From the NCBI GenBank assembly GCA_024682255.1, contig GCA_024682255.1_4716.1: a stretch of 64,000 nucleotides of DNA. One strand, 5' to 3'. Positions 27,816-48,099 of the stretch are shown here, in pieces (position 1 is the first letter of the stretch; every line of letters begins with the position of its first letter). The notes beneath the pieces were generated by a model. It was not told the DNA's origin, did not search any database, and saw nothing but the letters and a program-made list of their open reading frames with translations. Origin of the DNA: a phage. Both the position numbers and the translations under genes were made by a program.

Positions 27816-28145
27816 ATGAAACTGAACATCGAAATGGGTATAGCGTACGATACCATGTTTGGTTTGTACGACCGCGTTAACGAATGGACACCGTTGAAAT
27901 GGGTGGCTCAGCATCCCGCTGAAGATCCCTGGGACAGATTAGGGATTAAACCCTTAATCGAGGATTATGTTCGATTCGGTATTAAAGAGTTCATGACGCT
28001 GGATGCGTTTTTAAAAGCACCGTATCCTTACGCGCAAACGGTACTCAAAATCGCACAAGACGAACTGCGGAAACGTAGTGCGGTACTGGACGACGATGAG
28101 GACAAGTTACGACGAGAAGAAGAACGTTTACGAAACGGAAAATAA
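27816..28145 (+). CDS. small hypothetical protein (~109 aa)
   Basis: Track frame starts at a TTG at 27786; first ATG at 27816; start uncertain. Confidence 0.45.
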   Translation: MKLNIEMGIAYDTMFGLYDRVNEWTPLKWVAQHPAEDPWDRLGIKPLIEDYVRFGIKEFMTLDAFLKAPYPYAQTVLKIAQDELRKRSAVLDDDEDKLRREEERLRNGK

Positions 28146-28146
28146 A

Positions 28147-28656
28147 ATGGCGAGATTTACCAGTTTGATTGGGTTGGATATTTGGGAAACACCGGCTGAC
28201 GTTCGGGTTATTCCTGTTAACACCGTCGGTGTGATGGGACGTGGTCTTGCTAAGCAGGCAGCCGATCGTGTGCCCGGTCTTCTTGAAGCGTACCGTAAGC
28301 AATGTCAAGATGGGTTTAAGGTGGGAGAAGTCGTGTCATATCAACACGGTGATAACGATCAACTCACTTACGTGCTGTTTCCATCAAAATCGGATTGGCG
28401 TGAAAGAACACGACGCGAGTATATCGTTAACGGTTTACTGGCGTTAAAAGCGTGGTTATTGGAGCTTCAGTTCGAAAGAGACGGCTTCTCATATCGGCGT
28501 CCGGCTGAACCGCTGATCGTTGCAATTCCTCCGGTTGGTTCTGGCTGCGGTAATATCGGCTACGGACAATCCGAAACAATCCAGCCTCAATGGGTACGCG
28601 CACAAATCAAACAGTATCTTGCCACCGTGCCAAACGTTCATTTCTACTTGTTCTAA
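28147..28656 (+). CDS. macro-domain-like (ADP-ribose-binding fold) protein, putative ADP-ribosyl hydrolase
   Basis: Two glycine-rich loops in macro-domain order and spacing: VIPVNTVGVMGRGLA and IVAIPPVGSGCGNIG; ATG one nt after the preceding TAA. Confidence 0.5.
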   Translation: MARFTSLIGLDIWETPADVRVIPVNTVGVMGRGLAKQAADRVPGLLEAYRKQCQDGFKVGEVVSYQHGDNDQLTYVLFPSKSDWRERTRREYIVNGLLALKAWLLELQFERDGFSYRRPAEPLIVAIPPVGSGCGNIGYGQSETIQPQWVRAQIKQYLATVPNVHFYLF

Positions 28657-28721: not shown

Positions 28722-29096
28722 TTAATCTTCGTTCCAGATGGCATCTTCCGGTGGAACAATAGGATCTTTCTTCGGCATTGATGGCACTTCATGACGATGC
28801 TTACGGAACTGCCTATCAATAACCTCACGAAGCCGGTACGCATCAACCCATGTTGATTTATTGAACAGCTCCAACGTCACAGTTAGCCGTGTTCTCGACA
28901 TTGAATAGCTTTTCTTTGCAATCAAATTGGGATAATTCAGTTGAGCGAACCACGCACGTATTTGTGCTTCGGTAAAAGCGATGCTGTAATAACTAAGTTT
29001 ACCGTCATTAAAATCGTGCGCGTGGGTGTAGCGTCCAGCGTAACGCCAGACAAGATGCACATTCAGATCGATCCATGGTGGGGTGGTATCAGCCAT
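28722..29096 (-). CDS. hypothetical protein (124 aa)
   Basis: ATG with GAGGG upstream. Confidence 0.55.
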   Translation of the reverse strand: MADTTPPWIDLNVHLVWRYAGRYTHAHDFNDGKLSYYSIAFTEAQIRAWFAQLNYPNLIAKKSYSMSRTRLTVTLELFNKSTWVDAYRLREVIDRQFRKHRHEVPSMPKKDPIVPPEDAIWNED

Positions 29097-29105
29097 GTGT
29101 TACCC

Positions 29106-29675
29106 TCAACGATTCTTCATCACTTTACCTAGGCTTTCGATATTATCCCAAAAGCGATTTTTACTTGGCGCATCACCGACGATAACCGACATCAAATCAC
29201 GACGTTCACGACTGATGATGCCTTGTGATTTCCAGATCACCATCGTCCAGCAAGCTGCCAGAACGAACAGATGGTTAATGCTTGGTTTGGTTTGCGCAAT
29301 GAACGCAAGCCATGCCCAGATACCGGTGTATACTATCGTCACTAAAAAGAGCGAGATTGTTGCAACGACAACAACGAAGTTTTGGACAGCGGGTTGATTC
29401 GCGTTATCATGAATAGCGGTAAGATCAGGAAGGTTACCTTCAACTGAACTCGTTTCATCGATTTCCAATTCTTCGATTTCTTTTCGTGTGTCAGGAGCTA
29501 ATCCAGCATCATCGAGATGCTTTTTTAACCGCTGTATGCTTAATCGTTGACCGACAGGAATGTTGATGTTGTCGTAACTATTAAGCGCATCGACCAGGGA
29601 GCGTCCGTCAACGAGAACCAAGCTCGCGGTACCCATCGTTTGCGGTTTTATTTTGTAAAGGTCTTTTACTTTCAT
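29106..29675 (-). CDS. membrane protein (189 aa, multiple TM segments)
   Basis: ATG with GGAGGT upstream; hydrophobic segments VVVVATISLFLVTIVYTGIWAWLAFI and LFVLAACWTMVIW. Confidence 0.55.
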   Translation of the reverse strand: MKVKDLYKIKPQTMGTASLVLVDGRSLVDALNSYDNINIPVGQRLSIQRLKKHLDDAGLAPDTRKEIEELEIDETSSVEGNLPDLTAIHDNANQPAVQNFVVVVATISLFLVTIVYTGIWAWLAFIAQTKPSINHLFVLAACWTMVIWKSQGIISRERRDLMSVIVGDAPSKNRFWDNIESLGKVMKNR

Positions 29676-29696: not shown

Positions 29697-32309
29697 TTAA
29701 GCGTCCGGCGTAAAATCAAAAGGAATGTCCGTACGAATGATATCATAACGTTTTCCGAGGAAATAGAACTCTTCGGGAACCTGGCCTGGAATGATGCTAT
29801 CACCGATGAACTGCGGATACGCCCAGATGTACTGGGTGAGTCCTTCGAACATATCCAGGTTATTTGCGTGGTTGCCCATGATACGTTTCCAGAGTTCGCG
29901 TTTATACGGCGTTTTAACATCGAACCCATAAAGCGGTGCGAGGTCTTCACCAGGAACAAATCCCAGGTAATAGTGGATCTGACTAACTGGGAAACCAAGG
30001 GTATCTCGCGGAATGGTGATCGCTTGCTCAGCCTTGGTGACATGCGTCTCAATAATCCAGTCATAGCACTCTGAATAGAACCGATCGAATTTCTCTGGAT
30101 TATACCACGCTTTGGGAAGATTGAGTTTCTCCGTGAACGCGTTCGACATGATCGTCGGCAAGAACGGAAGAACGCCGGTTTTGATCTGCGTGTATTTCGA
30201 TTTTACCCGGTTAACGAGATTCCAGCAACTGTATCCTAACTGTTCGTTACAAAACTCAACATAGAGATCGTAGTCACCACCGGATAACGGGTTGTTAATA
30301 TCACCGATGTCTGCGGCGTATTTGTTGGGATATCGGTTATTGAAAGCCAGTTTGGTTTGGTAGTCGTAGATACACGGTTTGTTGTTCGCTGTATTGATCC
30401 ACCACCAGGGTTCACCTACTTGTACACAAATGTCCTGGACATGAGGGTAAATGATATCAGCAAACGCGGTTAACACATCCCCTAACCACGTCATCGCCTG
30501 TTGGTTACATGGAGACAACAACCAAGACGGTGGCGTATATCCGGTTGCTGCGATGTTTCCTTCCCAATCCTGCTGCGCCCACTCGAACGGGCATGCGGTA
30601 CTCATCAATTCGTAACTTAAACTGATGGTGACGGAGAAATGGTGTTTTGCAGCATATGCGGCGAAAGCTTCATGCCACGCGATACAGGCCGGATTTAATA
30701 CATCCGTGGTGTTCACCAGTAACTTACCCGCACTTGGCGTCCAGACAGTATCGTAGAAATGCGACATCCCAACATAATGCACTAATTCATCTTGATACCC
30801 CGCATAAACCAGGTTCTCAAATACGCGCTCCGGCGTGATGTTGTAATGGTCATCATAAGCGGTTATCGCACGAAGTTCGTGTGGCGTACAGTGGTGGCGA
30901 CTAACCGTCATTTCCTGATACACCCCATCGATAGGAAGAATCTCGATGGTTAAACCGAGGTCGATTGGCGTTTCCAGATAGGTCGTTTCAGTCGCATCTT
31001 CCTTATAATGTCGAGAACTCATGCTGAACATCAACGACGTTACCGATTCGAGTTCGATGGGTTCGTCAGCATAGAACCCCGCCATTGCGTCATTGAAATC
31101 GATCGTCACGATTGCGCTTCTACCGTCTTCAGAGACATCGGTCGCATATCGGGTTAATGAGATATACTGACGGCTATCGTCTTTGTGTACGACGGTTAAA
31201 ACCGGCGGGTGTTCGGTATCTGCAAAGTTACGCTGATCGCCAGTAAACGTGACCTTCGCTTTAAAGATCAAACCGAGTAACGATGTCATGGGATCATACG
31301 CAATACATCCGTGATCCAGCGTATCCGTTGTCCGCCATTCTATCCCGACCAACCCGTTAGCGGTATGACATCGCATATACGCATTAAGTGTCATGTCCTC
31401 ACTGACAACCGCGAAGTTCTCTGTTGACTGACCGTTGATAATCCAATACATCGGTTGCCAGAGGTTACGCGTACCTTTTGCGTAGCGGTAGGTTGGTGCG
31501 CCTTTGGGGTTGCCATTATTAAGATGGAATACGGCAGTACCTTGATAATGGTCGTTCGTATTAATCGGAACACTGTAAGCATCGCCGAGGTCCGTACGTT
31601 CCACCTTCGTGACTGTCGCGTTTTCAAATAACCCACGTAGCGCGGGTAAACCGATATCTTCCGGCGCGTTTTCTCGACGAATCGCATCCGCGATGCGGTG
31701 GGCTAAGGCGGGGTAAATGACCTCACCCTGTTGTAGGTTTGCAAGACCTACAAAGCGATCGGGAGCGATACCAGCAATCAATAACTCGACATCACCCTTC
31801 GTTCTATCGTCGTTAAGATATTTCAGTCCGGTAAGGTCAAGATGCTGAATAAGCGACAACAGGTTGTATTTACGGTTTTCAACAGTTAGTACAAGATCGC
31901 CCGCCCAAACCAAACTTCCCTCATCCGCTGTTACTTTAACGGATTGTCGGCCCGTGGTAGACGTTGTTGTCGTTTTATTTAATTGTCCTTGTAGGAAGTC
32001 GGTTGCGAGGTCAAAGGCGATACCGTAACGGTCAGCGACCGCTTGCATGATTTCACGTAACTGGGTATCTTCTTCAATGATAATCTTGACAGGTATTCCC
32101 AAGAACGCTTTAGCGAGGTCTCGTTTAACCAACGAGACGAATACGGATTTGTAGTATCGGCTTCCATCTTTCCCTTTAAAAAGAATGGAGGTTGTTTCGG
32201 GTGCCGATAGAACACGTGCAAATACAACATCGTCGGAAGTAAGAGAAAGTCCGTTTTTCTCGTTGACCAATCTTAGTATTTCATTTTGCGCGGTTTCATG
32301 TAACTTCAT
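29697..32309 (-). CDS. tailspike / tail-fibre-like protein (870 aa) with N-terminal anchor domain
   Basis: N-terminal region (RDLAKAFLGIPVKIIIEE ... DRYGIAFDLATDF) is paralogous to the short proteins at 38096..38623 and 42439..43269; long Trp/Tyr-rich C-terminal domain. Confidence 0.55.
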   Translation of the reverse strand: MKLHETAQNEILRLVNEKNGLSLTSDDVVFARVLSAPETTSILFKGKDGSRYYKSVFVSLVKRDLAKAFLGIPVKIIIEEDTQLREIMQAVADRYGIAFDLATDFLQGQLNKTTTTSTTGRQSVKVTADEGSLVWAGDLVLTVENRKYNLLSLIQHLDLTGLKYLNDDRTKGDVELLIAGIAPDRFVGLANLQQGEVIYPALAHRIADAIRRENAPEDIGLPALRGLFENATVTKVERTDLGDAYSVPINTNDHYQGTAVFHLNNGNPKGAPTYRYAKGTRNLWQPMYWIINGQSTENFAVVSEDMTLNAYMRCHTANGLVGIEWRTTDTLDHGCIAYDPMTSLLGLIFKAKVTFTGDQRNFADTEHPPVLTVVHKDDSRQYISLTRYATDVSEDGRSAIVTIDFNDAMAGFYADEPIELESVTSLMFSMSSRHYKEDATETTYLETPIDLGLTIEILPIDGVYQEMTVSRHHCTPHELRAITAYDDHYNITPERVFENLVYAGYQDELVHYVGMSHFYDTVWTPSAGKLLVNTTDVLNPACIAWHEAFAAYAAKHHFSVTISLSYELMSTACPFEWAQQDWEGNIAATGYTPPSWLLSPCNQQAMTWLGDVLTAFADIIYPHVQDICVQVGEPWWWINTANNKPCIYDYQTKLAFNNRYPNKYAADIGDINNPLSGGDYDLYVEFCNEQLGYSCWNLVNRVKSKYTQIKTGVLPFLPTIMSNAFTEKLNLPKAWYNPEKFDRFYSECYDWIIETHVTKAEQAITIPRDTLGFPVSQIHYYLGFVPGEDLAPLYGFDVKTPYKRELWKRIMGNHANNLDMFEGLTQYIWAYPQFIGDSIIPGQVPEEFYFLGKRYDIIRTDIPFDFTPDA

Positions 32310-32331: not shown

Positions 32332-32973
32332 TTAGATGTACTGCTTACCGCCCACGAAGGAAGTTAACCAGTTCCCGCTGACGAGTTGTGATACCCAGCC
32401 TGGAACGGCTCTACCATTCTGGCTCATGATGTTACCACACCAACCAGGGAATCCGGGACGGATGTAATAGAAAGTTAAATTGTAGAGATGACAGTTCCAT
32501 ACCGCAACGTTATGTTTACCAGAAACCGCTTTAAAGACAAACGCGACAGGTAACGGAGACGATAACAATTCGGTCACAGGGACAGCTGACCAGTTCGCAT
32601 TCGCGTTCCATGGTTGCCAGGTATGACTACGCGAGTCGCAATATACGTTACCGTTGCTACCGCGTCCGCCCGCGTTCCACCATAGCGACGGACTCATGTT
32701 TTTAAGTGAGGTAAATTGCTGTGGTGGTATATTCGGAATGATAACAGGGTTGGTACCTTGTCCGTGTTTCTTTTCTTTTGTGTTCACATAGCCGTTTATC
32801 GATTCGAGGTATTTCGTACCAGGATAATTGTTCTGGACTTGTGTCGCAATATCACGAACGTCGAACGTCCAGCAGATCATGGTGTTATAGTAAGCGTCGG
32901 TGTTATCGTGCCATGAGTTACCATCTTGTAAACGTGCGCCGCTATTCGGTGTTTTATCTGTACTTATAGCCAT
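32332..32973 (-). CDS. Trp-rich hypothetical protein (213 aa), receptor-binding module
   Basis: ATG with AGGA upstream; located between the lipoprotein gene and the 870-aa tailspike-like gene. Confidence 0.55.
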   Translation of the reverse strand: MAISTDKTPNSGARLQDGNSWHDNTDAYYNTMICWTFDVRDIATQVQNNYPGTKYLESINGYVNTKEKKHGQGTNPVIIPNIPPQQFTSLKNMSPSLWWNAGGRGSNGNVYCDSRSHTWQPWNANANWSAVPVTELLSSPLPVAFVFKAVSGKHNVAVWNCHLYNLTFYYIRPGFPGWCGNIMSQNGRAVPGWVSQLVSGNWLTSFVGGKQYI

Positions 32974-33112
32974 GGTCTTGTCCTATACGTTGGTGGTTGA
33001 AGTGGCGGATATCGGATGCATGCTGGACGTGAACCCTATAGTTCGCGCTATCGCCATTTTCTACCTCGTTTCTATTCTCAAAAAGGAAATTTCATACGAT
33101 GACGCCATAGCA

Positions 33113-33142
33113 GCTCCTCCTTCCCTGACGGGTTGGAGGAGC
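33113..33142 (-). terminator. two-tier hairpin of the same family in opposite orientation
   Basis: GCTCCTCC-ttccctgacgggtt-GGAGGAGC; loop is the reverse complement form of the aaccc-N4-gggaa loop seen at 5616, 21505 and 28673. Confidence 0.5.
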
Positions 33143-33150
33143 ATACTTAA

Positions 33151-33657
33151 TTACTTACTGATAACCTCAACGGAGTTGGGATCAGCGATCAATGCACGGT
33201 CGGTAGAACAATTGAAGAAGACCATCCCAACACCATCGCCGTTCGAGTTCAGGGTCGAACTTGCGTAAGACAATGTTGGTTTGTTCATGCGGTAGAAGCG
33301 TTCGCTGGTTGCGGTATTGAACCCCAGGTCAACGTAGTCTTTCACCGTGGTATACAACTGGGTGGACTCGAAAACGGTTACCGGAGAGTCAACGGTAAAC
33401 TGACTGCCTTCATCCACAACCAGAACTTTATCGTTCCAGATTTCAGTGGTTGAGAACTTCGGTTTCCAATGTTCGAATTCCTGGGTTGCACCCCAGCAAG
33501 AATACACAGCGAGATTGCTGTTCTTCTCAACAGGTTTTAACCCCACCAGTTGCGTCAGGTCTTTATCCAGGTTCGGTAAACCTTCCAGCGTAGCACACCC
33601 ACCCAGAGAAAGCACCATCAACATACCAAGAACGATCGCGCAAAGTTTCTTTGTCAT
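33151..33657 (-). CDS. lipoprotein (168 aa), candidate receptor-masking / superinfection-exclusion factor
   Basis: Signal peptide with lipobox (MTKKLCAIVLGMLMVLSLGGC); GAGGA upstream; directly downstream of the fibre and Tfa genes. Confidence 0.6.
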   Translation of the reverse strand: MTKKLCAIVLGMLMVLSLGGCATLEGLPNLDKDLTQLVGLKPVEKNSNLAVYSCWGATQEFEHWKPKFSTTEIWNDKVLVVDEGSQFTVDSPVTVFESTQLYTTVKDYVDLGFNTATSERFYRMNKPTLSYASSTLNSNGDGVGMVFFNCSTDRALIADPNSVEVISK

Positions 33658-33698: not shown

Positions 33699-34115
33699 TT
33701 ACACAGTTGTAGGAAATTCCGGCCAATCGATATTTGGTGCAGCATCGGTATCGACAGCAGTCACCGCATCAGTGTAATCCAAAACAGCATTAAGTCGGGT
33801 CGTTTCTTCCGGAGTCAGTTTTCGCCCAGCCCGTAATTTTAACTGAATAAGATCGATGGAAGCCAGCGCAGAATCAATCAAAGATTGTTTTATCTGTTCT
33901 GCTTCGGCGACGAGATCTTCGTGTTGCCGCTCGGGTTCCGGAGGTGCGGTAAACTCACCATTTGAGTATGACCAACCTATTCCAGGTGACACAGCCTCCT
34001 TATCGTCGATATGAACCAACTGCTGATTGTCGAATATATCGAGCTCTGCTTCACCATCGTAAACAATCGTGTTTACTACCACTCCATTTTCAATAACAGC
34101 GTATAATGTACTCAT
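33699..34115 (-). CDS. tfa: tail fibre assembly protein (Tfa-like chaperone)
   Basis: C-terminal LNAVLDYTDAVTAVDTDAAPNIDWPEFP matches the Tfa signature (...VDTSxAPxIxWP); ATG overlaps TAA of the fibre gene (TAATG). Confidence 0.7.
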   Translation of the reverse strand: MSTLYAVIENGVVVNTIVYDGEAELDIFDNQQLVHIDDKEAVSPGIGWSYSNGEFTAPPEPERQHEDLVAEAEQIKQSLIDSALASIDLIQLKLRAGRKLTPEETTRLNAVLDYTDAVTAVDTDAAPNIDWPEFPTTV

Positions 34116-37100
34116 TACATAAACTCCTCGATGATGCAAATCCCATTAGCACCGCGCCCACCAGGCTTAGCGGTTCCTGAGTAAGAGTTATCGTAAGCAG
34201 CACCACCACCCGAACCAGGCGCGAGGCCGTTATGGGCGGTGCCGACACCAGCACGGCCGCCACCGCCCCAATATGACGCACCCCCACATCCACCGGCGGC
34301 AAGAGTACCGGCTTGTCCATCGCTACCGTCTCCGCCCGGAATGCGTATATCCCCGGTAGTAGGTACGCCCCCATAGCCACCGCCAGTGTTTGTGACAGTT
34401 GTTTTTCCTGCGCCTTGCCCGCCGGGAGCAGTTAGCAGGGATGCAAATTTACTATCTCCACCCCCGTTCCCATTCGTCGCCCCAGAGCCACCGGAACCAC
34501 CAGAACCAATTATAACAGAATAACTAGCAGCTGCTACCGTTATAACCGAAATTACTGTTCCGCCAGCTCCTCCTCCAGCGCCAAAAAACGTTTCGCTGTT
34601 GGAATAAGCCTGACAACCGCCACCGCCACCGCCACCACCGGTTATCGTTACTCTAATCCGTTTTGTTCCTTGTGTTGGGGTGTACGTCCCTGACGATGTG
34701 AAAACACGCATATTCAGTAAACGCCCGACATATCCACTAGAATCGGCTAAACCAAGATCTTTAGCTGCTAACGTGATATTAGCCGTACCGTCGAAAGGTT
34801 TACCGTTAATCGTGCGCGCAGTTTGCAGCTTCGTCGCCGTTGCTGCGTTCCCTGATGTATTCTGGTTCCCCGCGGCGTTAACACCTGGTAGATTGATGTT
34901 CGCACTACCGTCGAACGCGACACCACCGATCGTCCTTGCTGTTTGCAGTTTTGTCGCCGTGGCGGCATTACCGGTCGTGTCTTGGTTACCGGTGGTGTTT
35001 ACCCCAGGCAGGTTGATATTTGCCGTTCCGTTAAATGAGACACCACCAATCGTCCTTGCCGTTTGCAACCTCGTTGCGGATGCCGCATTCCCCGTGGTGT
35101 TTTGGTTACCTGTTGCATTCACACCTGGGATACTATCCTTAGATGTGTAGATCTGTGCCCATTCCGACCAGTTCGCATCGGTTGAATCACGACGTGAACG
35201 TAAATAAGCTGGAGCGTGTGCACCTGAGGTACCTGACCACCCAATGAGGATTTCGCCTTCGCCGACCGATGAAGCACCTTTAAGATGAACAATGTTGCCG
35301 TAGGCTGTAGGGTATCCGTTATTGTACGCTTCATACATCTGGATACCCGTGTTGCTGCCCTGGGTCGCATTAGCTAAAGCGGTGACCCGTCCTTTGGAAG
35401 CGAGCACGTTAATGCTAAAGCTAATATCGGTTGTACCGTCAAAGGCGACCCCGTTAATCTTCCGTGCTGTTTGGAGTTTCGTGGCAGTAGCCGCATTACC
35501 AGAGGTACTCTGATTACCTGCTTTGTTCACACCCGGTAAATCAATGTTGGCTGTTCCATCAAAGGACACGCCCCCTATGGTTCTCGCTGTCTGGAGTTTT
35601 GTTGCTGAACCAGCGTTTCCGGAAGTGCTTTGATTACCTGCCGCGTTGACACCTGGTAGGTTAATGCTAGCAGAGCCATCAAAAGAAACTCCGCCGATCG
35701 TGATCGGTGTTTTCAATTTCGTGGCTGTCGCGGCGTTACCCGTCGTATTCTGATTGCCAGCCGCATTAACGCCTGGTAATGCGATATCGGTCGTACCATC
35801 GAACGCAACACCACCGATTTTACGGGCGGTCTGTAGCTTGGTCGCTGTAGCCGCGTTGCCGCTGGTATTTTGCGTGCCCGCTTCATTTACGCCTGGTAAA
35901 TCAATGTTCGCAGTACCATCAAAAGAAACACCCCCGATGGTTCTCGCGGTCTGCAACTTCGTTGCACTTCCTGCGTTTCCGCTGGTGCTTTGATTTCCCG
36001 CTGCATTAACACCTGGTAGACTGATGCTGGCTGAACCATCGAAACTCACACCACCGATCGTAACAGCGGTTTTCAATTTCGTGGCGGTTGCTGCGTTACC
36101 GGTTGTATTTTGGTTGCCTGTCGCATTCACGCCAGGTAATGCAATATCCGCTGTTCCGTCAAAGGCAACGCCACCGATTTTACGTGCAGTTTGTAGCTTG
36201 GTTGCACTAGCAGCGTTACCGCTGGTATTCTGGGTGCCTGCTTTGTTAACACCGGGGAGATCGATGTTAGCAGAACCATCGAAGCTGACGCCACCTATCG
36301 TTCTTGCGGTAGCGAGTTTAGCTGCTGTGGCTGCATTATTACCCACTTTCAGCCAATCATCCCATGGACCATCCTGGCCGTTCCATGATGCCGTTAAACT
36401 ACGTACGTAAATATTGCCGGTACGTACAGTGTAACGTTGCGTTCCACCGAATTGCCCGGTTGGGAGCACTTCAATGTAACCTGCGGCGTTTGCTTCAGGG
36501 AAATTGTGGGCGATGTCCGCGTTCGTTGTTACTGGTTTAGACCAAATACCAACAGACGCTTCGACTGGGCCGAAGGTATTCAGATTTGCGTCTATCGCCA
36601 TAGCGCCATTAAATTTCAGGTATGTCTCTGGCGATAATCCGATCGTTTTAGCAAACGCAGCTTTATCTACGATATCACTACCGTTATTCCCTGCTTGCAA
36701 CGCCGTCTTAGCTGCCTTTATGGTTTCGGTCAATCCAAGATATTGTAAGATCGCATCAACGCTTCCTTTGTTTAGCAGATTCAGACCTGTTGACGTTACG
36801 TTAGTTAGTCCGATTTGGTTCCGTCCAGTAAAATAAGGGAGTTTATTCGCTTCTGTTGTTAGGTTAGACCACGCAGTCAACAACGCGTTCAAAGGCTGTT
36901 TACCCGCCAACGCATTGGTTACTGTCGTTGCGAAATTAGGATCGTTCCCTAAAGCTTGAGCCAGCTCATTAAGCGTATTTAGCGCTTCTGGAGACGAGTC
37001 GATCAGCGATGCGATAGCGCGCATCACAAATTCCGTGTTGGCAATCTGTCGACTGCTATCGTTCTCTGCAGCCGTAGGCGCTGCCGGGATACCGGTGAAC

Positions 37101-38089
37101 ACGGGGCTATTAAGATCTGCCTTGAGCGCGATGAGACGTTTAAGTGCGTCGACATCGACTTTCAGGTTTTCCCACCCGATGAGAGAACCACCACTGCTGG
37201 CATGATAACGGTTATACCAGAAGTCACCGTTAATGCCTAAAAAGAATATTCCCTTCTCTTCGTTTTGTGGGCCAGAACTGTTCCGTGACGAGCTGATGTA
37301 ATTGATTTCAATAAGACCGGTAAACGTCACTCCTGGAATTATTTTATTGTCTCCAGCTGACTGTGATACCTGGTAAATCCCCGGGGTTGCGGCTTTAACC
37401 CATGTTAAGAATTCTGTTACTCCAGCGGTGCCGCTAAAATTCTTAACGTCGGTAAGTATTGCCCCATAACCGAACATACCGGGTAGAGCCACTCGTCCGC
37501 TGGTACGGTCACGAATATCTGTTACAACAACGGGCAATTGTTTACGAACGGCATTAACCGCTTTAGGCGTGGCCGATTTTGTCTCGTCGTCGCTATCGGT
37601 TGCATTACTTAGAATAGTTAAACCGCGTGTAGCAGTAGTTGCATCAGGAAGAAATGCGTTATCCAACACCTTAAGCTGTACTGCACTCGTATTACTAACA
37701 ACGACATGCACTTGACAGTTAAGAACGCTGGTTGCGCCTTCGGCAGGCGTAGGCTTATATCTTTCTGGTGCACTGCAGACGGCAATCAGAACACCTTGAT
37801 CATCATACAGACCGATCTCACGTACCCAGAACCCACCTTGACCAGCAGGAATAATACCCTCAACGATAATCCTGGTTGTGCTATCACCATCCGCATGGAT
37901 ATTAGAAACTTCCCCACGATAAACTTCGTGGACAAGCGCTGTTTGGCTGGCGGACGGGGTTGGGATCGAGCCGTTACCATCACCAACGGCAAAGTGTGTG
38001 ATTTTTAGTTTCTCACCGTCGGGAAGTAACGCAGCGGTGATACGTTCTGCTCCTTTATCGGTAACTACCGTTATATATGCTGTACTCAT
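34115..38089 (-). CDS. long tail fibre protein (1324 aa): Stf-like N-terminus, 40-aa tandem repeats, Gly-rich C-terminus
   Basis: N-terminus (AVGDGNG, LVHEVYRGE, GGFWVREIGLYDDQG, APERYKP) resembles lambda-type side tail fibres; about 11 tandem 40-aa repeats (TIGGVSFDGSANIDLPGVN...GNAATATKLQTAR); C-terminal poly-Gly region. Confidence 0.8.
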   Translation of the reverse strand: MSTAYITVVTDKGAERITAALLPDGEKLKITHFAVGDGNGSIPTPSASQTALVHEVYRGEVSNIHADGDSTTRIIVEGIIPAGQGGFWVREIGLYDDQGVLIAVCSAPERYKPTPAEGATSVLNCQVHVVVSNTSAVQLKVLDNAFLPDATTATRGLTILSNATDSDDETKSATPKAVNAVRKQLPVVVTDIRDRTSGRVALPGMFGYGAILTDVKNFSGTAGVTEFLTWVKAATPGIYQVSQSAGDNKIIPGVTFTGLIEINYISSSRNSSGPQNEEKGIFFLGINGDFWYNRYHASSGGSLIGWENLKVDVDALKRLIALKADLNSPVFTGIPAAPTAAENDSSRQIANTEFVMRAIASLIDSSPEALNTLNELAQALGNDPNFATTVTNALAGKQPLNALLTAWSNLTTEANKLPYFTGRNQIGLTNVTSTGLNLLNKGSVDAILQYLGLTETIKAAKTALQAGNNGSDIVDKAAFAKTIGLSPETYLKFNGAMAIDANLNTFGPVEASVGIWSKPVTTNADIAHNFPEANAAGYIEVLPTGQFGGTQRYTVRTGNIYVRSLTASWNGQDGPWDDWLKVGNNAATAAKLATARTIGGVSFDGSANIDLPGVNKAGTQNTSGNAASATKLQTARKIGGVAFDGTADIALPGVNATGNQNTTGNAATATKLKTAVTIGGVSFDGSASISLPGVNAAGNQSTSGNAGSATKLQTARTIGGVSFDGTANIDLPGVNEAGTQNTSGNAATATKLQTARKIGGVAFDGTTDIALPGVNAAGNQNTTGNAATATKLKTPITIGGVSFDGSASINLPGVNAAGNQSTSGNAGSATKLQTARTIGGVSFDGTANIDLPGVNKAGNQSTSGNAATATKLQTARKINGVAFDGTTDISFSINVLASKGRVTALANATQGSNTGIQMYEAYNNGYPTAYGNIVHLKGASSVGEGEILIGWSGTSGAHAPAYLRSRRDSTDANWSEWAQIYTSKDSIPGVNATGNQNTTGNAASATRLQTARTIGGVSFNGTANINLPGVNTTGNQDTTGNAATATKLQTARTIGGVAFDGSANINLPGVNAAGNQNTSGNAATATKLQTARTINGKPFDGTANITLAAKDLGLADSSGYVGRLLNMRVFTSSGTYTPTQGTKRIRVTITGGGGGGGGCQAYSNSETFFGAGGGAGGTVISVITVAAASYSVIIGSGGSGGSGATNGNGGGDSKFASLLTAPGGQGAGKTTVTNTGGGYGGVPTTGDIRIPGGDGSDGQAGTLAAGGCGGASYWGGGGRAGVGTAHNGLAPGSGGGAAYDNSYSGTAKPGGRGANGICIIEEFM
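34777..36334 (-). repeat. tandem ~120-bp coding repeats inside the tail fibre gene (two blocks)
   Basis: Protein residues ~586-895 and ~985-1105 are 40-aa repeats with alternating 80-aa super-period; antisense ORFs on the track (34680..35150, 35754..35993, 36024..36410) mirror the repeat. Confidence 0.7.
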
Positions 38090-43403: not shown

Positions 43404-43979
43404 TTAGTAAGGAATCAGATCGTTAAGCTTTTCTTCTTCAATGACAAAGAAGTTGTTCTGGTCGTCTAAATCTGTTAACAGGACTTGCCCAACAGTAAAG
43501 CAAGTGCCGCCTTTCTTAGGCACCCATACAGGCTCGTTCGTTACCTTATCGGGATACCATTTGAAACGATTGGTATCTAAGAAGAACGCTGCTTTGTTCG
43601 CTTTATCAGTTGAACGATAGCTAACTAGCGCAGGCCACTCAATCCAGGTGTTTGTGCACGGCACATGTAAAGGATACCATGCGCGCCAGCGTTTGCCTGG
43701 CCTGTTAGGATCAACCCAATACTCGGCAGTCAATACAGCATCTTTATAATGTTTCTGCATTAACATTTCGAGCACAAGCTCATTGCCTTTTGATGCGTCT
43801 AACGTCACTTCCGTCATATAAAGCGATTTAGGTAATTCAGACTGTTTTGCGGGTGTTACAACACCGGTAACCAACGGTCTGCTCGGTTTACGTTTCTGTT
43901 CTTTCCGACGTGTGTAAAAGAATAGTCCGACAGATACGGCAACAAGTATAATAAACAACACTACCTTAATCCAATTCAT
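43404..43979 (-). CDS. membrane-anchored protein (191 aa, N-terminal TM)
   Basis: MNWIKVVLFIILVAVSVGLFFYTRRK; ATG overlaps upstream stop (ATGA). Confidence 0.55.
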   Translation of the reverse strand: MNWIKVVLFIILVAVSVGLFFYTRRKEQKRKPSRPLVTGVVTPAKQSELPKSLYMTEVTLDASKGNELVLEMLMQKHYKDAVLTAEYWVDPNRPGKRWRAWYPLHVPCTNTWIEWPALVSYRSTDKANKAAFFLDTNRFKWYPDKVTNEPVWVPKKGGTCFTVGQVLLTDLDDQNNFFVIEEEKLNDLIPY

Positions 43980-44725
43980 TCGTCAATATCTCCTTCTACA
44001 AACAGAGTCAATTTGATTTCAGGGTCATAGAACATAGTAATCACATCATCCTGCTCTACTGAACGCTGTGCTGTCCATATTAACTGTTCATCCCGAATAT
44101 CAAATTTATGTCGTTCGTCACTCACCACAGCTTCCGCATCAACGTAATGGTAAACCTCACCGAGAGGATTCTCAATCCAACCGCGTACCATCAAACGTTC
44201 TTTTTGTTTACGTGTAAAGAAGCGATAAGGATCTTCGCACGTGCGCCACACGTCCCCGTTCTCGTTAACCAGCTCATCATAAACTTTAGAGAGTTCGTCA
44301 GGTACCGGAATCAAAATGTTATCTTGATAGTTAGACCAGAAACGACGTACGTCTTGGATCAACTCATCGTCTGGGAGTTTAGTCGCTATGTTACTATAAT
44401 CGATTTCAACAGTATCGATATCAGGACGGGTAAACGGAAGAGCGTCTAGATTTCCCACCATGACCTCGATACTATCATGATGAACACGAATCCATCCATC
44501 GAACCATCTATACCCATCAGCTTGATATAACGTTGTATGATAAGTGACGACGTTAATGTCTTCGAACGATTCTAATAAGGCTTTAGCGGCTAAAAGCGGC
44601 GAAAAGTTCTTTGATTGTCCTGGTTTACGTATTTCTTCTTTGATGAACAATTTACCAAGCGCCGGGTGTTCGATAACAAAACCACAGGAGAGCATGATGC
44701 TTCCTTGATAACGTGCTTCTTGCAT
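43976..44725 (-). CDS. hypothetical protein (~249 aa)
   Basis: Internal ATG (MQEARYQ...) has AAGGA 8 nt upstream; track start at 44764 is also an ATG but lacks an SD. Confidence 0.5.
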   Translation of the reverse strand: MQEARYQGSIMLSCGFVIEHPALGKLFIKEEIRKPGQSKNFSPLLAAKALLESFEDINVVTYHTTLYQADGYRWFDGWIRVHHDSIEVMVGNLDALPFTRPDIDTVEIDYSNIATKLPDDELIQDVRRFWSNYQDNILIPVPDELSKVYDELVNENGDVWRTCEDPYRFFTRKQKERLMVRGWIENPLGEVYHYVDAEAVVSDERHKFDIRDEQLIWTAQRSVEQDDVITMFYDPEIKLTLFVEGDIDE

Positions 44726-44801
44726 TTTCCATTCCTTAAACAAAGTGTGTCTTTTACGCGACATGATTACAAGTACACAGGTTACTGAATTTCTGTAAAA
44801 G

Positions 44802-45302
44802 TTAATGTTTGTTCTTTACGAACTCTATCGCCTCCAGAATACCAGCGTTTAATCGTTGACCGCGTTCCTCCATTGTCCCACCATCGCGATGTTTGAAATT
44901 AACCGAGTGGATATCCCAAGCCCAGTAATGTGTCTCCGGCGTGTCGTCTTCTTTGGTGGGATCGCTCAATCTGTTAACCCCAATTCGCCAAATATAATCA
45001 GCGGGTTGTCGTCGTAAGCATTCACCTATAGCGTCTATATAAGACAACCCTTCGGTCGTCACAGCGACGACAACGTGTGGGTGTTTTTTGACTTCTTTGG
45101 TTGTTTGTTTGCCGTCCAATGTCACGCTGATCTTTTGAATTTCGTGTCCTTCGCACGACCATATCGGTGCAATACCTGGCGCATCTAACAACGCCTGGCA
45201 TGCGGGTAATATACCAGGTTCAATGACTCCTTCCTTGATAGCCATCCATGCACGTTCTTTGAATTTCGCTAATTGTTCTTCGGTGACAACAAAAGAAAAC
45301 AT
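44802..45302 (-). CDS. hypothetical protein (~166 aa)
   Basis: ATG (MFSFVV...) with AAGGAG 6 nt upstream; track start at 45332 is a GTG. Confidence 0.55.
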   Translation of the reverse strand: MFSFVVTEEQLAKFKERAWMAIKEGVIEPGILPACQALLDAPGIAPIWSCEGHEIQKISVTLDGKQTTKEVKKHPHVVVAVTTEGLSYIDAIGECLRRQPADYIWRIGVNRLSDPTKEDDTPETHYWAWDIHSVNFKHRDGGTMEERGQRLNAGILEAIEFVKNKH

Positions 45303-45374
45303 GATTACTCCTTTCTGGTTCTTCCCCTCCACAGCCTCAGGAAGAGAAGAACCGTTTGCTAAGTTGCTAAGTAA

Positions 45375-45632
45375 TTAAAATGCGTTGATTGGGTTGTTCA
45401 GCGCTTTATCGCGGATTTGAATCGCCGCCAGCATTGCTTTCTGGTACGAATCGTAAGCATCAACAGAAACCGTCATATCAACCAATTTCTCTAATACGGA
45501 TTCAGCCGCTTTTACGCGGATGCGGAACTTGGTGATGGCGTTATCTTTGTTACGATAAACCGTGATGTGGTGCAACGGTTGAACGTTAGTTTTATTCGTT
45601 TTAACGGATTTAGTTGCTTTGATCGTTTTCAT
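45375..45632 (-). CDS. small basic protein (85 aa)
   Basis: ATG with GAAGGAAA upstream; Lys-rich N-terminus. Confidence 0.5.
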   Translation of the reverse strand: MKTIKATKSVKTNKTNVQPLHHITVYRNKDNAITKFRIRVKAAESVLEKLVDMTVSVDAYDSYQKAMLAAIQIRDKALNNPINAF

Positions 45633-45686
45633 GGTGATTTCCTTCTTTATTAGGATGATTACATTTAGTCAGTTTAACAGCATAAA

Positions 45687-45711
45687 CCCTTCCTGCCTTA
45701 CGCAGGAAGGG
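45687..45711 (-). terminator. hairpin after the endolysin gene (CCCTTCCTGC / GCAGGAAGGG)
   Basis: Perfect 10-bp stem, 5-nt loop, 15 nt downstream of the gene ending at 45726. Confidence 0.55.
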
Positions 45712-45725
45712 CATACGGATTTGTT

Positions 45726-46223
45726 TTACGTGTGTCGTCGTTTACCAAAGAAAATGTGACTGTCTACCACGGTGATATTGGTAGCATGTTTTCTGAAATG
45801 TTTAGGGCGAAGATGTTTCGCGTTAAAGAATACGGCTCCTCGTGTTGGGTCGGCTTTATGGTAAGCCGCAATGTCAATATAACGTAATGTTGCGACCTCT
45901 CGCGCTATTGCTCTTGCTCGCTCAAAAGCAGCATGATCGCGTATGACAATACGCCTTTGTTTTGTCCAGGGGAATTGACCTCTTTGCAGTACGACGTCTT
46001 TGACGTTCGTAGGGAATCGGTAGTCCATAGATCGATTATGTATTAAAAACGCCACGGAGTATTGCCCTTTTACAGATTCGCCTCTGGCTTCCATATACAC
46101 AGCACATGCGACGATCTCTTTCCGGCAATCGATTCTAGGTCCTGCGTTCACTGATGCTTGACTGAACGGTGTGATAAGCAACATAACAAGCCCTAAAATC
46201 AACGTGTGTAAAATACCTTGCAT
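45726..46223 (-). CDS. SleB/CwlJ-type cell wall hydrolase with N-terminal signal or SAR sequence (endolysin candidate)
   Basis: CAVYMEARGES ... LQRGQFPWTK resemble the Hydrolase_2 family; hydrophobic N-terminus MQGILHTLILGLVMLLITPFSQA. Confidence 0.65.
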   Translation of the reverse strand: MQGILHTLILGLVMLLITPFSQASVNAGPRIDCRKEIVACAVYMEARGESVKGQYSVAFLIHNRSMDYRFPTNVKDVVLQRGQFPWTKQRRIVIRDHAAFERARAIAREVATLRYIDIAAYHKADPTRGAVFFNAKHLRPKHFRKHATNITVVDSHIFFGKRRHT

Positions 46224-46475
46224 CTTAATAACCTCACGATAAGGTGCTGTCCACTGGCGTCTTGATAACGCATCCCATCATCGGGTTGTTCTATTCAGCG
46301 GGCAGCAGGTTAGCGTCAGATGTTTGCCCGACATCCACGACAGAAATAAGCGGTACTGAAATTACGGTCTCCTCTGGTTTGGCAATAAACATAACGTTGG
46401 ATAACAGAACCCATTTCCCGCATCCAACGCGGTAAAGGTGTACATCGTTTGAATTCATATAGTTTCTCAAAGATG

Positions 46476-46787
46476 TTAACCTCTACCGTCAAGCCATAGG
46501 TTGTATTTATCCCGAACATACGGATCGCGATAAATACGTCGATAGACTTGATGTGGTATAAACTTGCAATGTACGAGTTCATCGCTTAATTTATGCCGTC
46601 GTTCCACACCGTTGTGAATACGACGTATCTCCCGGATATTAAAGGTTGTTTTATTCAAGAGAATAGACATAATGGCGGATCGATGATCCAGATTAAAGAT
46701 CGCCATCACGCTTCGTATCTCACGTAAAACAACTTCTCTATCGACAAGGATGCGATTAGTTAACTTAAGATTCTCCGTGATACCCAT
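46476..46787 (-). CDS. basic hypothetical protein (~103 aa); start uncertain
   Basis: Track frame 46476..46844 begins at a GTG; internal ATG with GAGGA upstream; overlaps another track ORF (46316..46582), so gene model is uncertain. Confidence 0.35.
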   Translation of the reverse strand: MGITENLKLTNRILVDREVVLREIRSVMAIFNLDHRSAIMSILLNKTTFNIREIRRIHNGVERRHKLSDELVHCKFIPHQVYRRIYRDPYVRDKYNLWLDGRG

Positions 46788-47136
46788 AACCTTCATCCTC
46801 GACACGTCGACACATCGGTAAAAATAAACACCAGCTTGTTGCACTGAGGATCGCCGTTGCGATGATATTTGCGATATCGCTCAGTCGGGCATCGACCTGC
46901 CACATAACAAGCATAAAAAGAACGTATGCGAACCCATACACGACAAACCGTCTGATGTTACGCGTCGACCACGTACAAATATACAAAAGGGGAAGCTGCC
47001 CTATAACACAAACGATGGTTCGGATAACGTAATAAACGCGTTCCGTCGTTGTTTCAAAATCGATATTCGTTGCAGAAATCCCGATCATTATAAAAGTGAA
47101 AATGAAATAGATTTTTGCGTATGTCTTTAAACTCAT
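46765..47136 (-). CDS. polytopic membrane protein (123 aa, about 4 TM)
   Basis: Hydrophobic segments IYFIFTFIMIGI, VIGQLPLLYICTW, VVYGFAYVLFMLVMW, ATAILSATSWCLFL; part of the lysis-type cluster. Confidence 0.5.
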   Translation of the reverse strand: MSLKTYAKIYFIFTFIMIGISATNIDFETTTERVYYVIRTIVCVIGQLPLLYICTWSTRNIRRFVVYGFAYVLFMLVMWQVDARLSDIANIIATAILSATSWCLFLPMCRRVEDEGYGYHGES

Positions 47137-47152
47137 GGCTTTTCCCGATCGT

Positions 47153-47347
47153 TTATTTGTGTTTTCCTACATTCCTCAACAAGGTAACGATAACGAATAC
47201 CGCTATCATCAAGAAGACGAACCATAACCCTACGTTAATTCGGGCGGCTGGTACATCCACCATGAAGAACATCGTCCCACAAAACCCAATGACTATCCAT
47301 GCTAGAACCATCCCTGTTAATCCCCGCAGCAACTTAAGCCAGATCAT
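47153..47347 (-). CDS. small two-TM membrane protein (64 aa), holin-like
   Basis: ATG (MIWLKLL...) with AAGGAG 7 nt upstream; two hydrophobic helices and charged C-terminus (RNVGKHK). Confidence 0.5.
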   Translation of the reverse strand: MIWLKLLRGLTGMVLAWIVIGFCGTMFFMVDVPAARINVGLWFVFLMIAVFVIVTLLRNVGKHK

Positions 47348-47520
47348 AAACTTCTCCTTACTTTTTCTGATAAAGCGATGATTCAAATTTTAGAAACATC
47401 CCTAATGCGAATGCGAGTAATAACGCACGTATCCACATACCTCCTTGACAACTGTTGTACAACATAAAGACCAGAGCGATGCCGCCCATATGCAGGCGGC
47501 ACTTATCGAACAGTGTTGGT

Positions 47521-47730
47521 TTATACATAAGAGATCAATCGTTGAATGATTTTTACTTTGCCTTTACCTGGGCCTTTCTTGCGGCGATTCAACAGACGGA
47601 TACTGTTTCCAGTTACGGTGTCGCCATCATAATCAGCCCGGAACTGTGATAAAAAAGCAGGTTGTATCTGATCGACACCAGGATTGCTGTAGAAAGGATT
47701 GAGACTTAAAAGAGGGTTAGCTGGAATCAT
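47521..47730 (-). CDS. small hypothetical protein (~69 aa)
   Basis: ATG with AAGGA 8 nt upstream; track start is a TTG. Confidence 0.4.
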   Translation of the reverse strand: MIPANPLLSLNPFYSNPGVDQIQPAFLSQFRADYDGDTVTGNSIRLLNRRKKGPGKGKVKIIQRLISYV

Positions 47731-47748
47731 CGTATCGTCCTTACTCAA

Positions 47749-48099
47749 TTATTTACCCAGATAGAGGTATTCACCACCCTGAACAACACCGGTTGCTGGA
47801 TCAACAAGTATACGAACCCGCGCGTAGGTCTTGAAAGAGGGGTTGAAGACTTCGAAGTCTGCCACTTTCAATTTCACGCTGGGGTTGGTAGGGTTCTTAA
47901 CTCCGGGAAGTTCTTTCGGGGTACCGAAATCAACACCACATTCTTCAAGGTCTGCTGGCGTCATGCTCTCCATGGCCATGTAGATTGCTTTTGCTTTATC
48001 GTAAACTTCCGGGCTATCCAGCAACCCAGCCTGTGCTGAACCGACAACACTACCGAACAGAATAGCAACAGCAACAAACAATTTAGTTAACGTTTTCAT
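47749..48099 (-). CDS. secreted protein (116 aa, cleavable signal peptide)
   Basis: MKTLTKLFVAVAILFGSVVGSAQA signal peptide; GAGGAAAA upstream. Confidence 0.6.
   Translation of the reverse strand: MKTLTKLFVAVAILFGSVVGSAQAGLLDSPEVYDKAKAIYMAMESMTPADLEECGVDFGTPKELPGVKNPTNPSVKLKVADFEVFNPSFKTYARVRILVDPATGVVQGGEYLYLGK

Follow-up and report, generated by a model that had tools for sequence, protein, structure and literature searches.

What does a phage gain from a lipoprotein gene placed immediately downstream of its tail fibre genes? The question is raised by a stretch of phage DNA of 64,000 nucleotides (nt) from contig GCA_024682255.1_4716.1 (GenBank assembly GCA_024682255.1; hereafter the window), in which a minus-strand open reading frame (ORF; ATG at 33657-33655, stop codon at 33153-33151) encodes a lipoprotein precursor next to the genes for a tail fibre and its assembly protein, Tfa. 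The window belongs to a Goslar-like phage: the DNA of the region shares 95% identity with that of Escherichia phage vB_EcoM_Goslar, one of the nucleus-forming jumbo phages (family Chimalliviridae), and the orthologue there is Goslar_00088 (HOV27_gp088); we use gp88 for the protein and gp088 for the gene. Acting from within the periplasm, small phage lipoproteins whose genes lie beside those for receptor binding inactivate FhuA and LptD, and those of the Llp/Rtp45 type prevent adsorption both to infected cells and to the fragments that remain after lysis (PMC9586334; PMC12685063). A preliminary description of the window had proposed a T5-like receptor-masking role on the basis of gene position. 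We tentatively suggest that gp88, which belongs to a family other than Llp, Rtp45 or Cor, inactivates a receptor late in infection and thereby protects progeny, a reading that we regard as possible rather than probable. The gene had been deposited as hypothetical and its homologues automatically labelled "Lipoprotein"; new here are the definition of the family, its fold, its linkage to clusters of DUF7941 genes, the exclusion of a spanin function in phage SPN3US, and a reinterpretation of virion proteomics.

The N-terminus of the precursor, MTKKLCAIVLGMLMVLSLGG followed after the predicted cleavage site by CATLEG, has a basic n-region (KK) and then a hydrophobic core of 14 residues, and the protein satisfies all of the sequence criteria for a type-II (signal peptidase II, SPII) lipoprotein. 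The lipoprotein signal peptide and lipobox reported in the preliminary description were therefore borne out, the lipobox being a canonical LGG followed by C21. The residue at position +2 is Ala, without the Asp retention signal, and under the E. coli sorting rule Ala at +2 leads to delivery to the outer membrane; from its sequence, gp88 is thus predicted to be processed and to reside there. A PROSITE-style scan for [LVI][ASTVIG][GAS]C at residues 15-35, applied to all ORFs of the window in all frames and from alternative starts, returned this gene and one internal artefact in the glycine run of the fibre, and nothing else, whereas the chance expectation for lipobox ORFs of at least 100 amino acids (aa) was 0.06-0.07 per shuffled window. 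The artefact, a run in the fibre tip (ITGGGGGGGGC, within 34115..34711), fits the pattern when read from an internal ATG and is a false positive in naive scans.

The window and Goslar proteins are 99.4% identical: their mature parts are the same, and the precursors differ by one extra residue and by V8I, both within the signal peptide. Between the two genes there were 17.5 synonymous and 2.5 non-synonymous differences, a ratio of non-synonymous to synonymous proportions (pN/pS) of 0.04; the ratio was 0.13 against a relative that is 86% identical, and lay between 0.04 and 0.13 for the three relatives compared. The gene is real and under purifying selection. A search for related loci by close alignment yielded only three near-identical contigs of the Goslar type.

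More distant relatives could be recovered with profiles. The window protein matches phrog_9559 in PHROGs, which has no assigned function (E=2.9e-21), while searches of Pfam, NCBIfam, PADLOC and Protein Data Bank (PDB) sequences found no family beyond matches driven by the signal peptide (in PADLOC and NCBIfam). A profile search of 1.84 billion representative proteins gave about ten genuine relatives, and tblastn gave homologues with 28-35% identity in 53 other jumbo-phage records, from SPN3US-like phages of Salmonella, E. coli and Proteus and from the Erwinia genera Machinavirus and Wellingtonvirus and their relatives. These homologue searches did not find the family in phiKZ or in the CR5-type relatives of SPN3US, and it is thus an accessory gene rather than part of the core genome. 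Judged by these sequence searches, the family is tiny and confined to enterobacterial jumbo phages.

None of the 12 family members that were aligned, with identities as low as 24%, departs from the lipobox Cys21, and the lipoboxes take the forms L[GSA]GC, VTAC and LTAC. Every true homologue has a type-II signal with a lipobox, and none has Asp at +2. Invariant across the family are C21, C54, C150, G84, S98, R120, Y122, R123, S134, G140 and G142, and the presence of two further invariant cysteines, C54 and C150, fits an oxidising compartment. The members of phrog_9559, which include the "Lipoprotein" of Erwinia phages Kwan and Huxley and gp159 of SPN3US, share the R-x-Y-R and G-x-G motifs as well as the lipobox and both cysteines; gene order and strand vary by lineage.

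Several candidates were set aside. The remaining profile matches (P0007, P0012, P0014, P0015, P0017 and P0018) are large eukaryotic repeat proteins with repeated LSGC- or YSCWG-like strings. The label DUF2846, given by its depositor to the homologue from phage pEa_SNUABM_43, was not supported by a PF11008 match at E<=10. We also left out P0021-P0025, from Salmonella phages SPFM1, 8, 10, 15 and 20, which appear to be scrambled blocks of a gp159 homologue; the permuted order of the gp159 segments in these records suggests artefacts of assembly or annotation.

The positional argument of the preliminary description was strengthened by comparison across relatives. The gene does lie directly after the fibre and Tfa genes, its start codon being 41 nt past the Tfa stop codon, to which we add that it is on the minus strand. 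In the window, in Goslar and in the related contig L015, it is situated between the fibre/Tfa genes and genes for the DUF7941 proteins gp86 and gp91-93. In Goslar-like contigs it keeps its strand and its place in this fibre/DUF7941 block, and the neighbouring modules change. L015, whose lipoprotein is 98% identical to that of the window, has the same type of fibre upstream (78-95% identical; 1172 versus 1324 aa) and the same Caudo_TAP Tfa; its shorter fibre results from a change in repeat number. In L014 (lipoprotein 86% identical) the upstream fibre is homologous in the N-terminal ~360 residues only, and the chaperone is DUF4376, not Caudo_TAP. Upstream of the lipoproteins of L003 and L004 (both 49% identical to that of the window) are an unrelated 1375-aa gene and an unrelated 604-aa DUF7941 gene, respectively, and in L004 there are DUF7941 proteins on both sides; despite the unrelated upstream genes, these two lipoproteins are 89% identical to each other. 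Divergence of the lipoprotein parallels that of the downstream backbone genes (gp85, 43-44% identity; gp84, 53-59%).

The linkage to DUF7941 extends beyond the Goslar-like phages. In SPN3US, ChrisDB, Wellington and pEa_SNUABM_43, the lipoprotein gene is a lone gene whose two neighbours are both on the other strand, and the adjoining gene or genes encode DUF7941 proteins. Genome-wide scanning with hidden Markov models (HMMs) located it inside the main DUF7941 cluster of SPN3US (115-139 kb) and inside the gp86-93 cluster of Goslar. A host-recognition cluster was therefore found around the gene in every lineage examined (Goslar-like, SPN3US, ChrisDB, Wellington and pEa_SNUABM_43). The conserved theme of these clusters is envelope-interaction genes, with host recognition predominant; DUF7941 proteins have been proposed to form micron-long host-recognition filaments (preprint 10.64898/2026.04.21.720040).

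The timing of expression could be read from transcript counts of Goslar-infected cells at 30 min, in which gp088 had 358, 426 and 425 reads in control cells but 6, 11 and 3 on knock-down of chimallin, which stalls the infection in its early programme. The corresponding log2 changes were -3.6 to -6.0, the reads dropping 16-64-fold, and capsid and fibre genes behaved alike, whereas early genes changed by about +1. Expressed as reads per kb, computed from the same counts, gp088 (~795) had about twice the density of its flanking genes (gp087, ~506; gp089, ~321; gp090, ~390), with the major capsid gene at ~1540. Thus, gp088 is a late, strongly expressed gene that depends on the phage nucleus. Care is needed when papers on Goslar are compared, since the numbering in GenBank (MK327938) and RefSeq (NC_048170, HOV27_gp) agrees to about gp176 and diverges after it; the 69.5-kDa chimallin is HOV27_gp246 in RefSeq and, by size, Goslar_00189 in GenBank.

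The protein itself has been detected by LC-MS/MS (tandem mass spectrometry after liquid chromatography) of CsCl-purified Goslar virions, as YP_009820773.1, with 20 peptides, 209 spectra and 77.84% coverage, at 491-1158 copies per virion (median 737), the fourth most abundant of the unmodelled proteins; the authors list it without a predicted function, and gp087 at about 19 copies per virion-equivalent (10.64898/2026.04.21.720040). The mass of YP_009820773.1, 18,411 Da, is exactly that of Goslar_00088, and the peptides ALIADPNSVEVISK and DLTQLVGLKPVEK confirm the identity. The 130 residues covered are positions 32-167 minus the tripeptides FYR and MNK, and the virion peptides included no signal peptide and no N-terminal peptide with the Cys. 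This is the coverage expected of a processed, lipidated protein and points indirectly to processing, but a precursor peptide might likewise go undetected because it is hydrophobic.

The preliminary description had named evidence for a structural place in the virion as one of the results that would speak against receptor masking. Formally, the abundance of gp88 in purified virions is such a result. However, the peptide list for the "purified virion" sample (Table S4, 10.64898/2026.04.21.720040) contains many host proteins: within its A-E range, OmpC, OmpA and OmpF have 29, 19 and 17 entries, compared with 31 for the major capsid protein, with peptide intensities similar in magnitude to those for gp88. 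Because the sample is rich in porins, gp88 is most simply explained as part of outer-membrane debris that co-purified with the virions. The protein is also absent from the 28-protein cryo-electron microscopy (cryoEM) model of Goslar (10.64898/2026.04.21.720040). SPN3US gp159 is not listed in the virion mass spectrometry tables of that phage either, a weak point, since gp158, which is named in the main text of the same paper, is missing there too.

The mature part of gp88 was modelled with AlphaFold2 (AF2) on a diverse alignment of 13 sequences, an earlier run with seven close homologues having been discarded (predicted local distance difference test score, pLDDT, 36). The resulting model (pLDDT 80.9; predicted template modelling score, pTM, 0.75) has a disordered tether of about 20-25 residues, one helix, and ten β-strands that form a small β-barrel. 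C54 belongs to the first of the long strands and C150 to the final strand, and in this model the two probably form a disulfide that closes the barrel. Structure comparison shows that the small β-barrel resembles many lipid-anchored binding proteins of the periplasm or cell surface, and a Foldseek search of the PDB with the model found no significant match, and hence no specific known relative of the fold.

A lipoprotein made late by a lytic phage might also be an o-spanin, the most frequent alternative for phage lipoproteins, and this could be decided in SPN3US. SpaninDB curates a separated spanin pair in CR5, and the phages in which homologues of the CR5 i-spanin occur (SPN3US, ChrisDB, Wellington, Kwan and others) are those with the lipoprotein family. 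The i-spanin of SPN3US is gp204; gp205 (MKLFLAAILVLLLTGC...), encoded 10 nt later, is a textbook o-spanin, and a scan of the whole genome gave exactly two credible lipoprotein genes, gp159 and gp205. Since SPN3US has the separate canonical pair gp204/gp205, the lipoprotein family is not the spanin in that phage. Goslar differs in that gp88 is the only credible lipoprotein gene detected by scanning its whole genome. Goslar_00247 (L011:7664-8215) has the architecture of an i-spanin, i.e., an N-terminal transmembrane domain (TMD), a coiled coil and two C-terminal cysteines, and lies beside an RNase H gene, syntenic with SPN3US gp204/gp205; no o-spanin was found after it, near it or embedded in it. 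As for gp88 itself, the gene arrangement of an o-spanin was not found, the upstream gene being Tfa, which lacks a TMD and is not an i-spanin. A unimolecular spanin was rejected, because the lipoprotein has an N-terminal hydrophobic segment only and no C-terminal TMD.

How does gp88 compare with known exclusion lipoproteins? Like T5 Llp (with its BF23-type homologues) and Rtp45 or the Oekolampad superinfection-exclusion protein, it is a phage lipoprotein with a type-II signal, predicted to lie in the periplasmic leaflet of the outer membrane; like Llp and Rtp45, it has an internal cysteine pair and a gene beside those for host recognition. It differs from both in size, the mature protein being 2.4-fold larger (148 aa against roughly 60 aa for Llp, and 16.4 kDa against 6-7 kDa, or about 6-8 kDa when Cor is included), and in being a predicted β-barrel rather than a mini-protein. 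Unlike the early Llp, it is late and dependent on the phage nucleus, and it does not co-vary with the adjoining receptor-binding gene. The Cor proteins of phi80, N15, HK022 and T1-like phages are a further positional parallel, being outer-membrane lipoproteins whose genes lie at the distal end of the tail-fibre block and are co-oriented with the late genes. The role proposed for Cor includes protecting progeny from receptor on debris. Cor proteins are about 60-80 aa long, are specific for FhuA and belong to siphophages.

By elimination and context, a late lipoprotein that inactivates a receptor or masks it on debris is the best supported of the readings, and it can be set out as follows. The precursor would be exported via Sec, then cleaved and lipidated at Cys21, and a tether of about 25 residues would hold the compact, disulfide-stapled β-barrel in the periplasm. 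There the barrel would most likely bind a conserved outer-membrane component from the periplasmic side, so that neither the infected envelope nor the membrane debris produced by lysis would any longer capture progeny fibres and DUF7941 filaments. A receptor would be inactivated as it is by T5 Llp, Rtp45 and Cor, but by an unrelated and larger protein, and the timing would suit protection of progeny rather than early superinfection exclusion. Processing and outer-membrane location, the disulfide, the existence and identity of the target, and the effect on adsorption are parts of this scheme that we infer.

Several results weigh against this proposal. Searches of Pfam, PHROGs and NCBIfam and of structures found no homology of sequence or fold to Llp, Cor or Rtp45. 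Late expression excludes any protection during about the first 30 minutes of infection. The lipoprotein remains 86-89% identical where the adjoining fibre tip, chaperone or receptor-binding gene is non-homologous, i.e., there is no co-variation with the module whose receptor it would inactivate. The adjoining fibre is of the P1 S/Tfa type, which often binds lipopolysaccharide (LPS), a receptor that no lipoprotein in the periplasm can mask directly. Finally, these clusters also contain envelope-degrading genes, which in SPN3US are those for an endolysin of the GH108 type, a DUF1353 protein and an M15-like peptidase, so linkage cannot separate a role in adsorption from one in lysis. Of the T5-like masking originally proposed, then, what stood was the position beside receptor-binding genes, together with the exclusion of an o-spanin role in SPN3US, while homology, size, timing and co-variation all failed.

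Some other periplasmic or outer-membrane role, one that does not consist in a block to adsorption, we consider rather unlikely: for example, inhibition of a peptidoglycan hydrolase (the phage's own secreted or tail-borne lysin, or that of a competitor), stabilisation of the envelope during the long jumbo-phage cycle, or neutralisation of an envelope-based host defence. Consistent with such a role are a weak match in BFVD to a protein of RB49 whose lysozyme-inhibitor domain is LprI-like, the location of the gene one to four genes from a GH108-type endolysin in SPN3US and the Erwinia phages, and a conservation that is independent of swaps in the receptor-binding module; the invariant R120-x-Y122-R123 could, moreover, bind an anionic ligand. 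However, no family member gave a Pfam signal for MliC or PliC at E<=10, the GH108 endolysin of Goslar is 80 kb away, and nothing points to a particular target. Compared with the hydrolase inhibitors MliC, PliC and PhiA, gp88 lacks their sequence signal and motif and is about 50 residues larger, and its structural similarity to them is no stronger than to unrelated barrels. That gp88 is instead a genuine component of the virion, with about 500-1100 copies, e.g., on DUF7941 filaments or fibres, and acts on the particle rather than on the host envelope, seems to us improbable. Its rank among the unmodelled proteins of CsCl-purified virions would be accounted for, its abundance is of the same order as that of the DUF7941 proteins gp22 (577) and gp23 (2144), whose genes cluster with gp88, and it is transcribed late together with structural genes. 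Against this, the conserved Sec/SPII signal directs it to the periplasm, whereas virions assemble in the cytoplasm; no peptides came from the N-terminal 31 residues; the same sample is rich in OmpC, OmpA and OmpF; and the absence from the cryoEM model and, more weakly, from the SPN3US tables points the same way.

Two further readings carry a very low probability. According to one, several hundred lipidated copies would, once the cell has lysed, bind the DUF7941 filaments or fibre tips of progeny and be carried along on the particle. They would form a cap that can be removed, or a coat derived from membrane, on the host-recognition apparatus, and so act on the phage rather than on the receptor; in a variant of this, gp88 may also have taken the place of the o-spanin that is missing in Goslar, and the outer-membrane subunit of a split spanin would then be a folded barrel. 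The other, a distinctly remote prospect, is that in Goslar-like phages gp88 serves as the outer-membrane partner of the spanin, as a non-adjacent o-spanin, or otherwise disrupts the outer membrane at lysis. Here the attraction lies in its being the sole credible lipoprotein of a Goslar-type genome with an orphan i-spanin-like gene, Goslar_00247 by RNase H, that has no o-spanin adjoining or embedded in it; late expression fits, a size compatible with the 120-167 aa of jumbo-phage o-spanins (some of which have 148-167 aa) fits too, and the lysis cassette of phiKZ abuts fibre genes. It also resembles o-spanins (lambda Rz1, phiKZ gp141.1, and the o-spanins of CR5 and SPN3US, the latter gp205) in being a late lipoprotein of a lytic phage, predicted to lie in the outer membrane with periplasmic cysteines. 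Yet spanin genes are adjacent in all 528 of 528 curated systems, whereas gp088 has Tfa upstream and no i-spanin gene beside it; in SPN3US a dedicated o-spanin is present besides the family member; the predicted compact barrel with 4% proline contrasts with extended o-spanins rich in proline or helix; the protein is far more abundant than expected of a spanin; and without a C-terminal TMD it cannot be a u-spanin.

Table 1. Positions of the lipoprotein gene, its signals and its neighbours in the window
Feature	Position	Strand	Remarks
Lipoprotein gene, 168-aa precursor (Goslar_00088/HOV27_gp088 orthologue; phrog_9559)	33151..33657	minus	ORF call
Signal peptide, residues 1-20, MTKKLCAIVLGMLMVLSLGG	33598..33657	minus	Read from sequence; homologue N-termini equivalent
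Lipobox L18-G19-G20-C21	33595..33606	minus	Mature protein predicted to start at a lipidated Cys21
Mature protein C21-K168, 148 aa, 16.4 kDa, pI 4.6, 4% Pro	33151..33597	minus	Composition computed
Shine-Dalgarno sequence GAGGAAA	33662..33668	minus	4 nt 5' of the lipoprotein ATG; read from sequence
Tfa, tail fibre assembly protein, Goslar gp089	33699..34115	minus	Caudo_TAP, E=5e-20; overlaps 3' end of fibre gene
Tail fibre, 1324 aa, Goslar gp090	34115..38089	minus	Phage_tail_fib, Phage_fiber_2, Gly_rich_2; P1 S-like N-terminus, repeats, Gly-rich tip
213-aa protein, Goslar gp087	32332..32973	minus	No family match; first gene beyond the 177-nt gap
870-aa protein with DUF7941 and NCTSP TIM-barrel, Goslar gp086	29697..32309	minus	Host-recognition filament or glycosidase-like
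G+C-rich stem-loop, GCUCCUCC..CCC GUCA GGG..GGAGGAGC	33109..33147	minus	Begins 4 nt past the lipoprotein stop codon

The positions of these features are collected in Table 1. The 97-nt segment that holds the stem-loop has a folding energy of -30 kcal/mol (z = -3.1). As no U-run follows it, it is not a canonical intrinsic terminator; it may mark the 3' end of the fibre-Tfa-lipoprotein transcript or stabilise that transcript. The lipoprotein stop codon, with the stem-loop region after it, is separated from the next gene (gp087) by a gap of 177 nt.

Some observations on neighbouring genes were made in passing. The fibre has undergone module exchange: between the window gene (34115..38089) and that of L014 (L014:5575-9220), the N-terminal ~360 aa are common, and the C-terminal ~900 aa have been replaced along with the chaperone. 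At the end of the fibre operon (28722..29675, minus strand) is a gene for a 189-aa protein with a soluble N-terminal region of ~97 aa and one or two TMDs, followed by one for a 124-aa cytosolic protein. Both are kept in L003 and L004, and the 189-aa protein occurs also in PCH45, PhiEaH1 and Moabite-like phages. Their topology recalls that of phiKZ's class III holin, gp142, and the regulator of this holin, gp143, without BLAST similarity; as BLAST detected no Goslar counterparts of phiKZ gp141-144, the 189-aa membrane protein could not be equated with the phiKZ holin. Convergent with the fibre operon, on the plus strand at 28078..28656, is a gene for a macro-domain protein (Pfam Macro, E=1.5e-5; phrog_335, "phosphatase"), and a terminator is annotated between the two in Goslar.

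A second group of envelope-targeted genes, possibly a lysis cassette, lies on the minus strand at 43404..48099, none of them functionally annotated. It encodes a 165-aa protein with an N-terminal signal or signal-anchor-release (SAR)-like segment and a SleB-type Hydrolase_2 domain (45726..46223; E=4e-16, with matches to endolysin PHROGs), a 123-aa holin-like protein with about four TMDs (46765..47136), a 56-aa protein with one TMD (47358..47528), a 116-aa protein with a signal peptidase I (SPI) signal, cleaved between AQA and G (47749..48099), and a 191-aa protein with an N-terminal TMD (43404..43979). In L002, L005, L006 and L017 (SPN3US, ChrisDB, Wellington and pEa_SNUABM_43), the DUF1353 protein encoded after the GH108-type endolysin is mis-annotated as "tail assembly-like". 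The Erwinia phages have an ORF of 37-44 aa with a single TMD after that endolysin, and in SPN3US the M15-like peptidase gp158 lies between the endolysin group and the lipoprotein gene.

In the 2026 structural and proteomic study of Goslar, gp88 is one of the most abundant of the "virion-associated proteins of unknown function" (10.64898/2026.04.21.720040). With gp88 seen as a conserved lipoprotein of the outer membrane, that datum more likely reports envelope material from infected cells than a protein that is injected. The late stage at which nucleus-forming jumbo phages act on the host envelope has been little studied, and gp88 offers a concrete and easily testable entry point to it. If gp88 does not block adsorption, Goslar would be a phage with one lipoprotein and an i-spanin-like gene that is an orphan, and the question would arise of how it gets through the host outer membrane. 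If it does, it would add a third class, distinct in structure, to the phage lipoproteins that inactivate receptors, and could reveal an outer-membrane component that these broad-host-range phages need.

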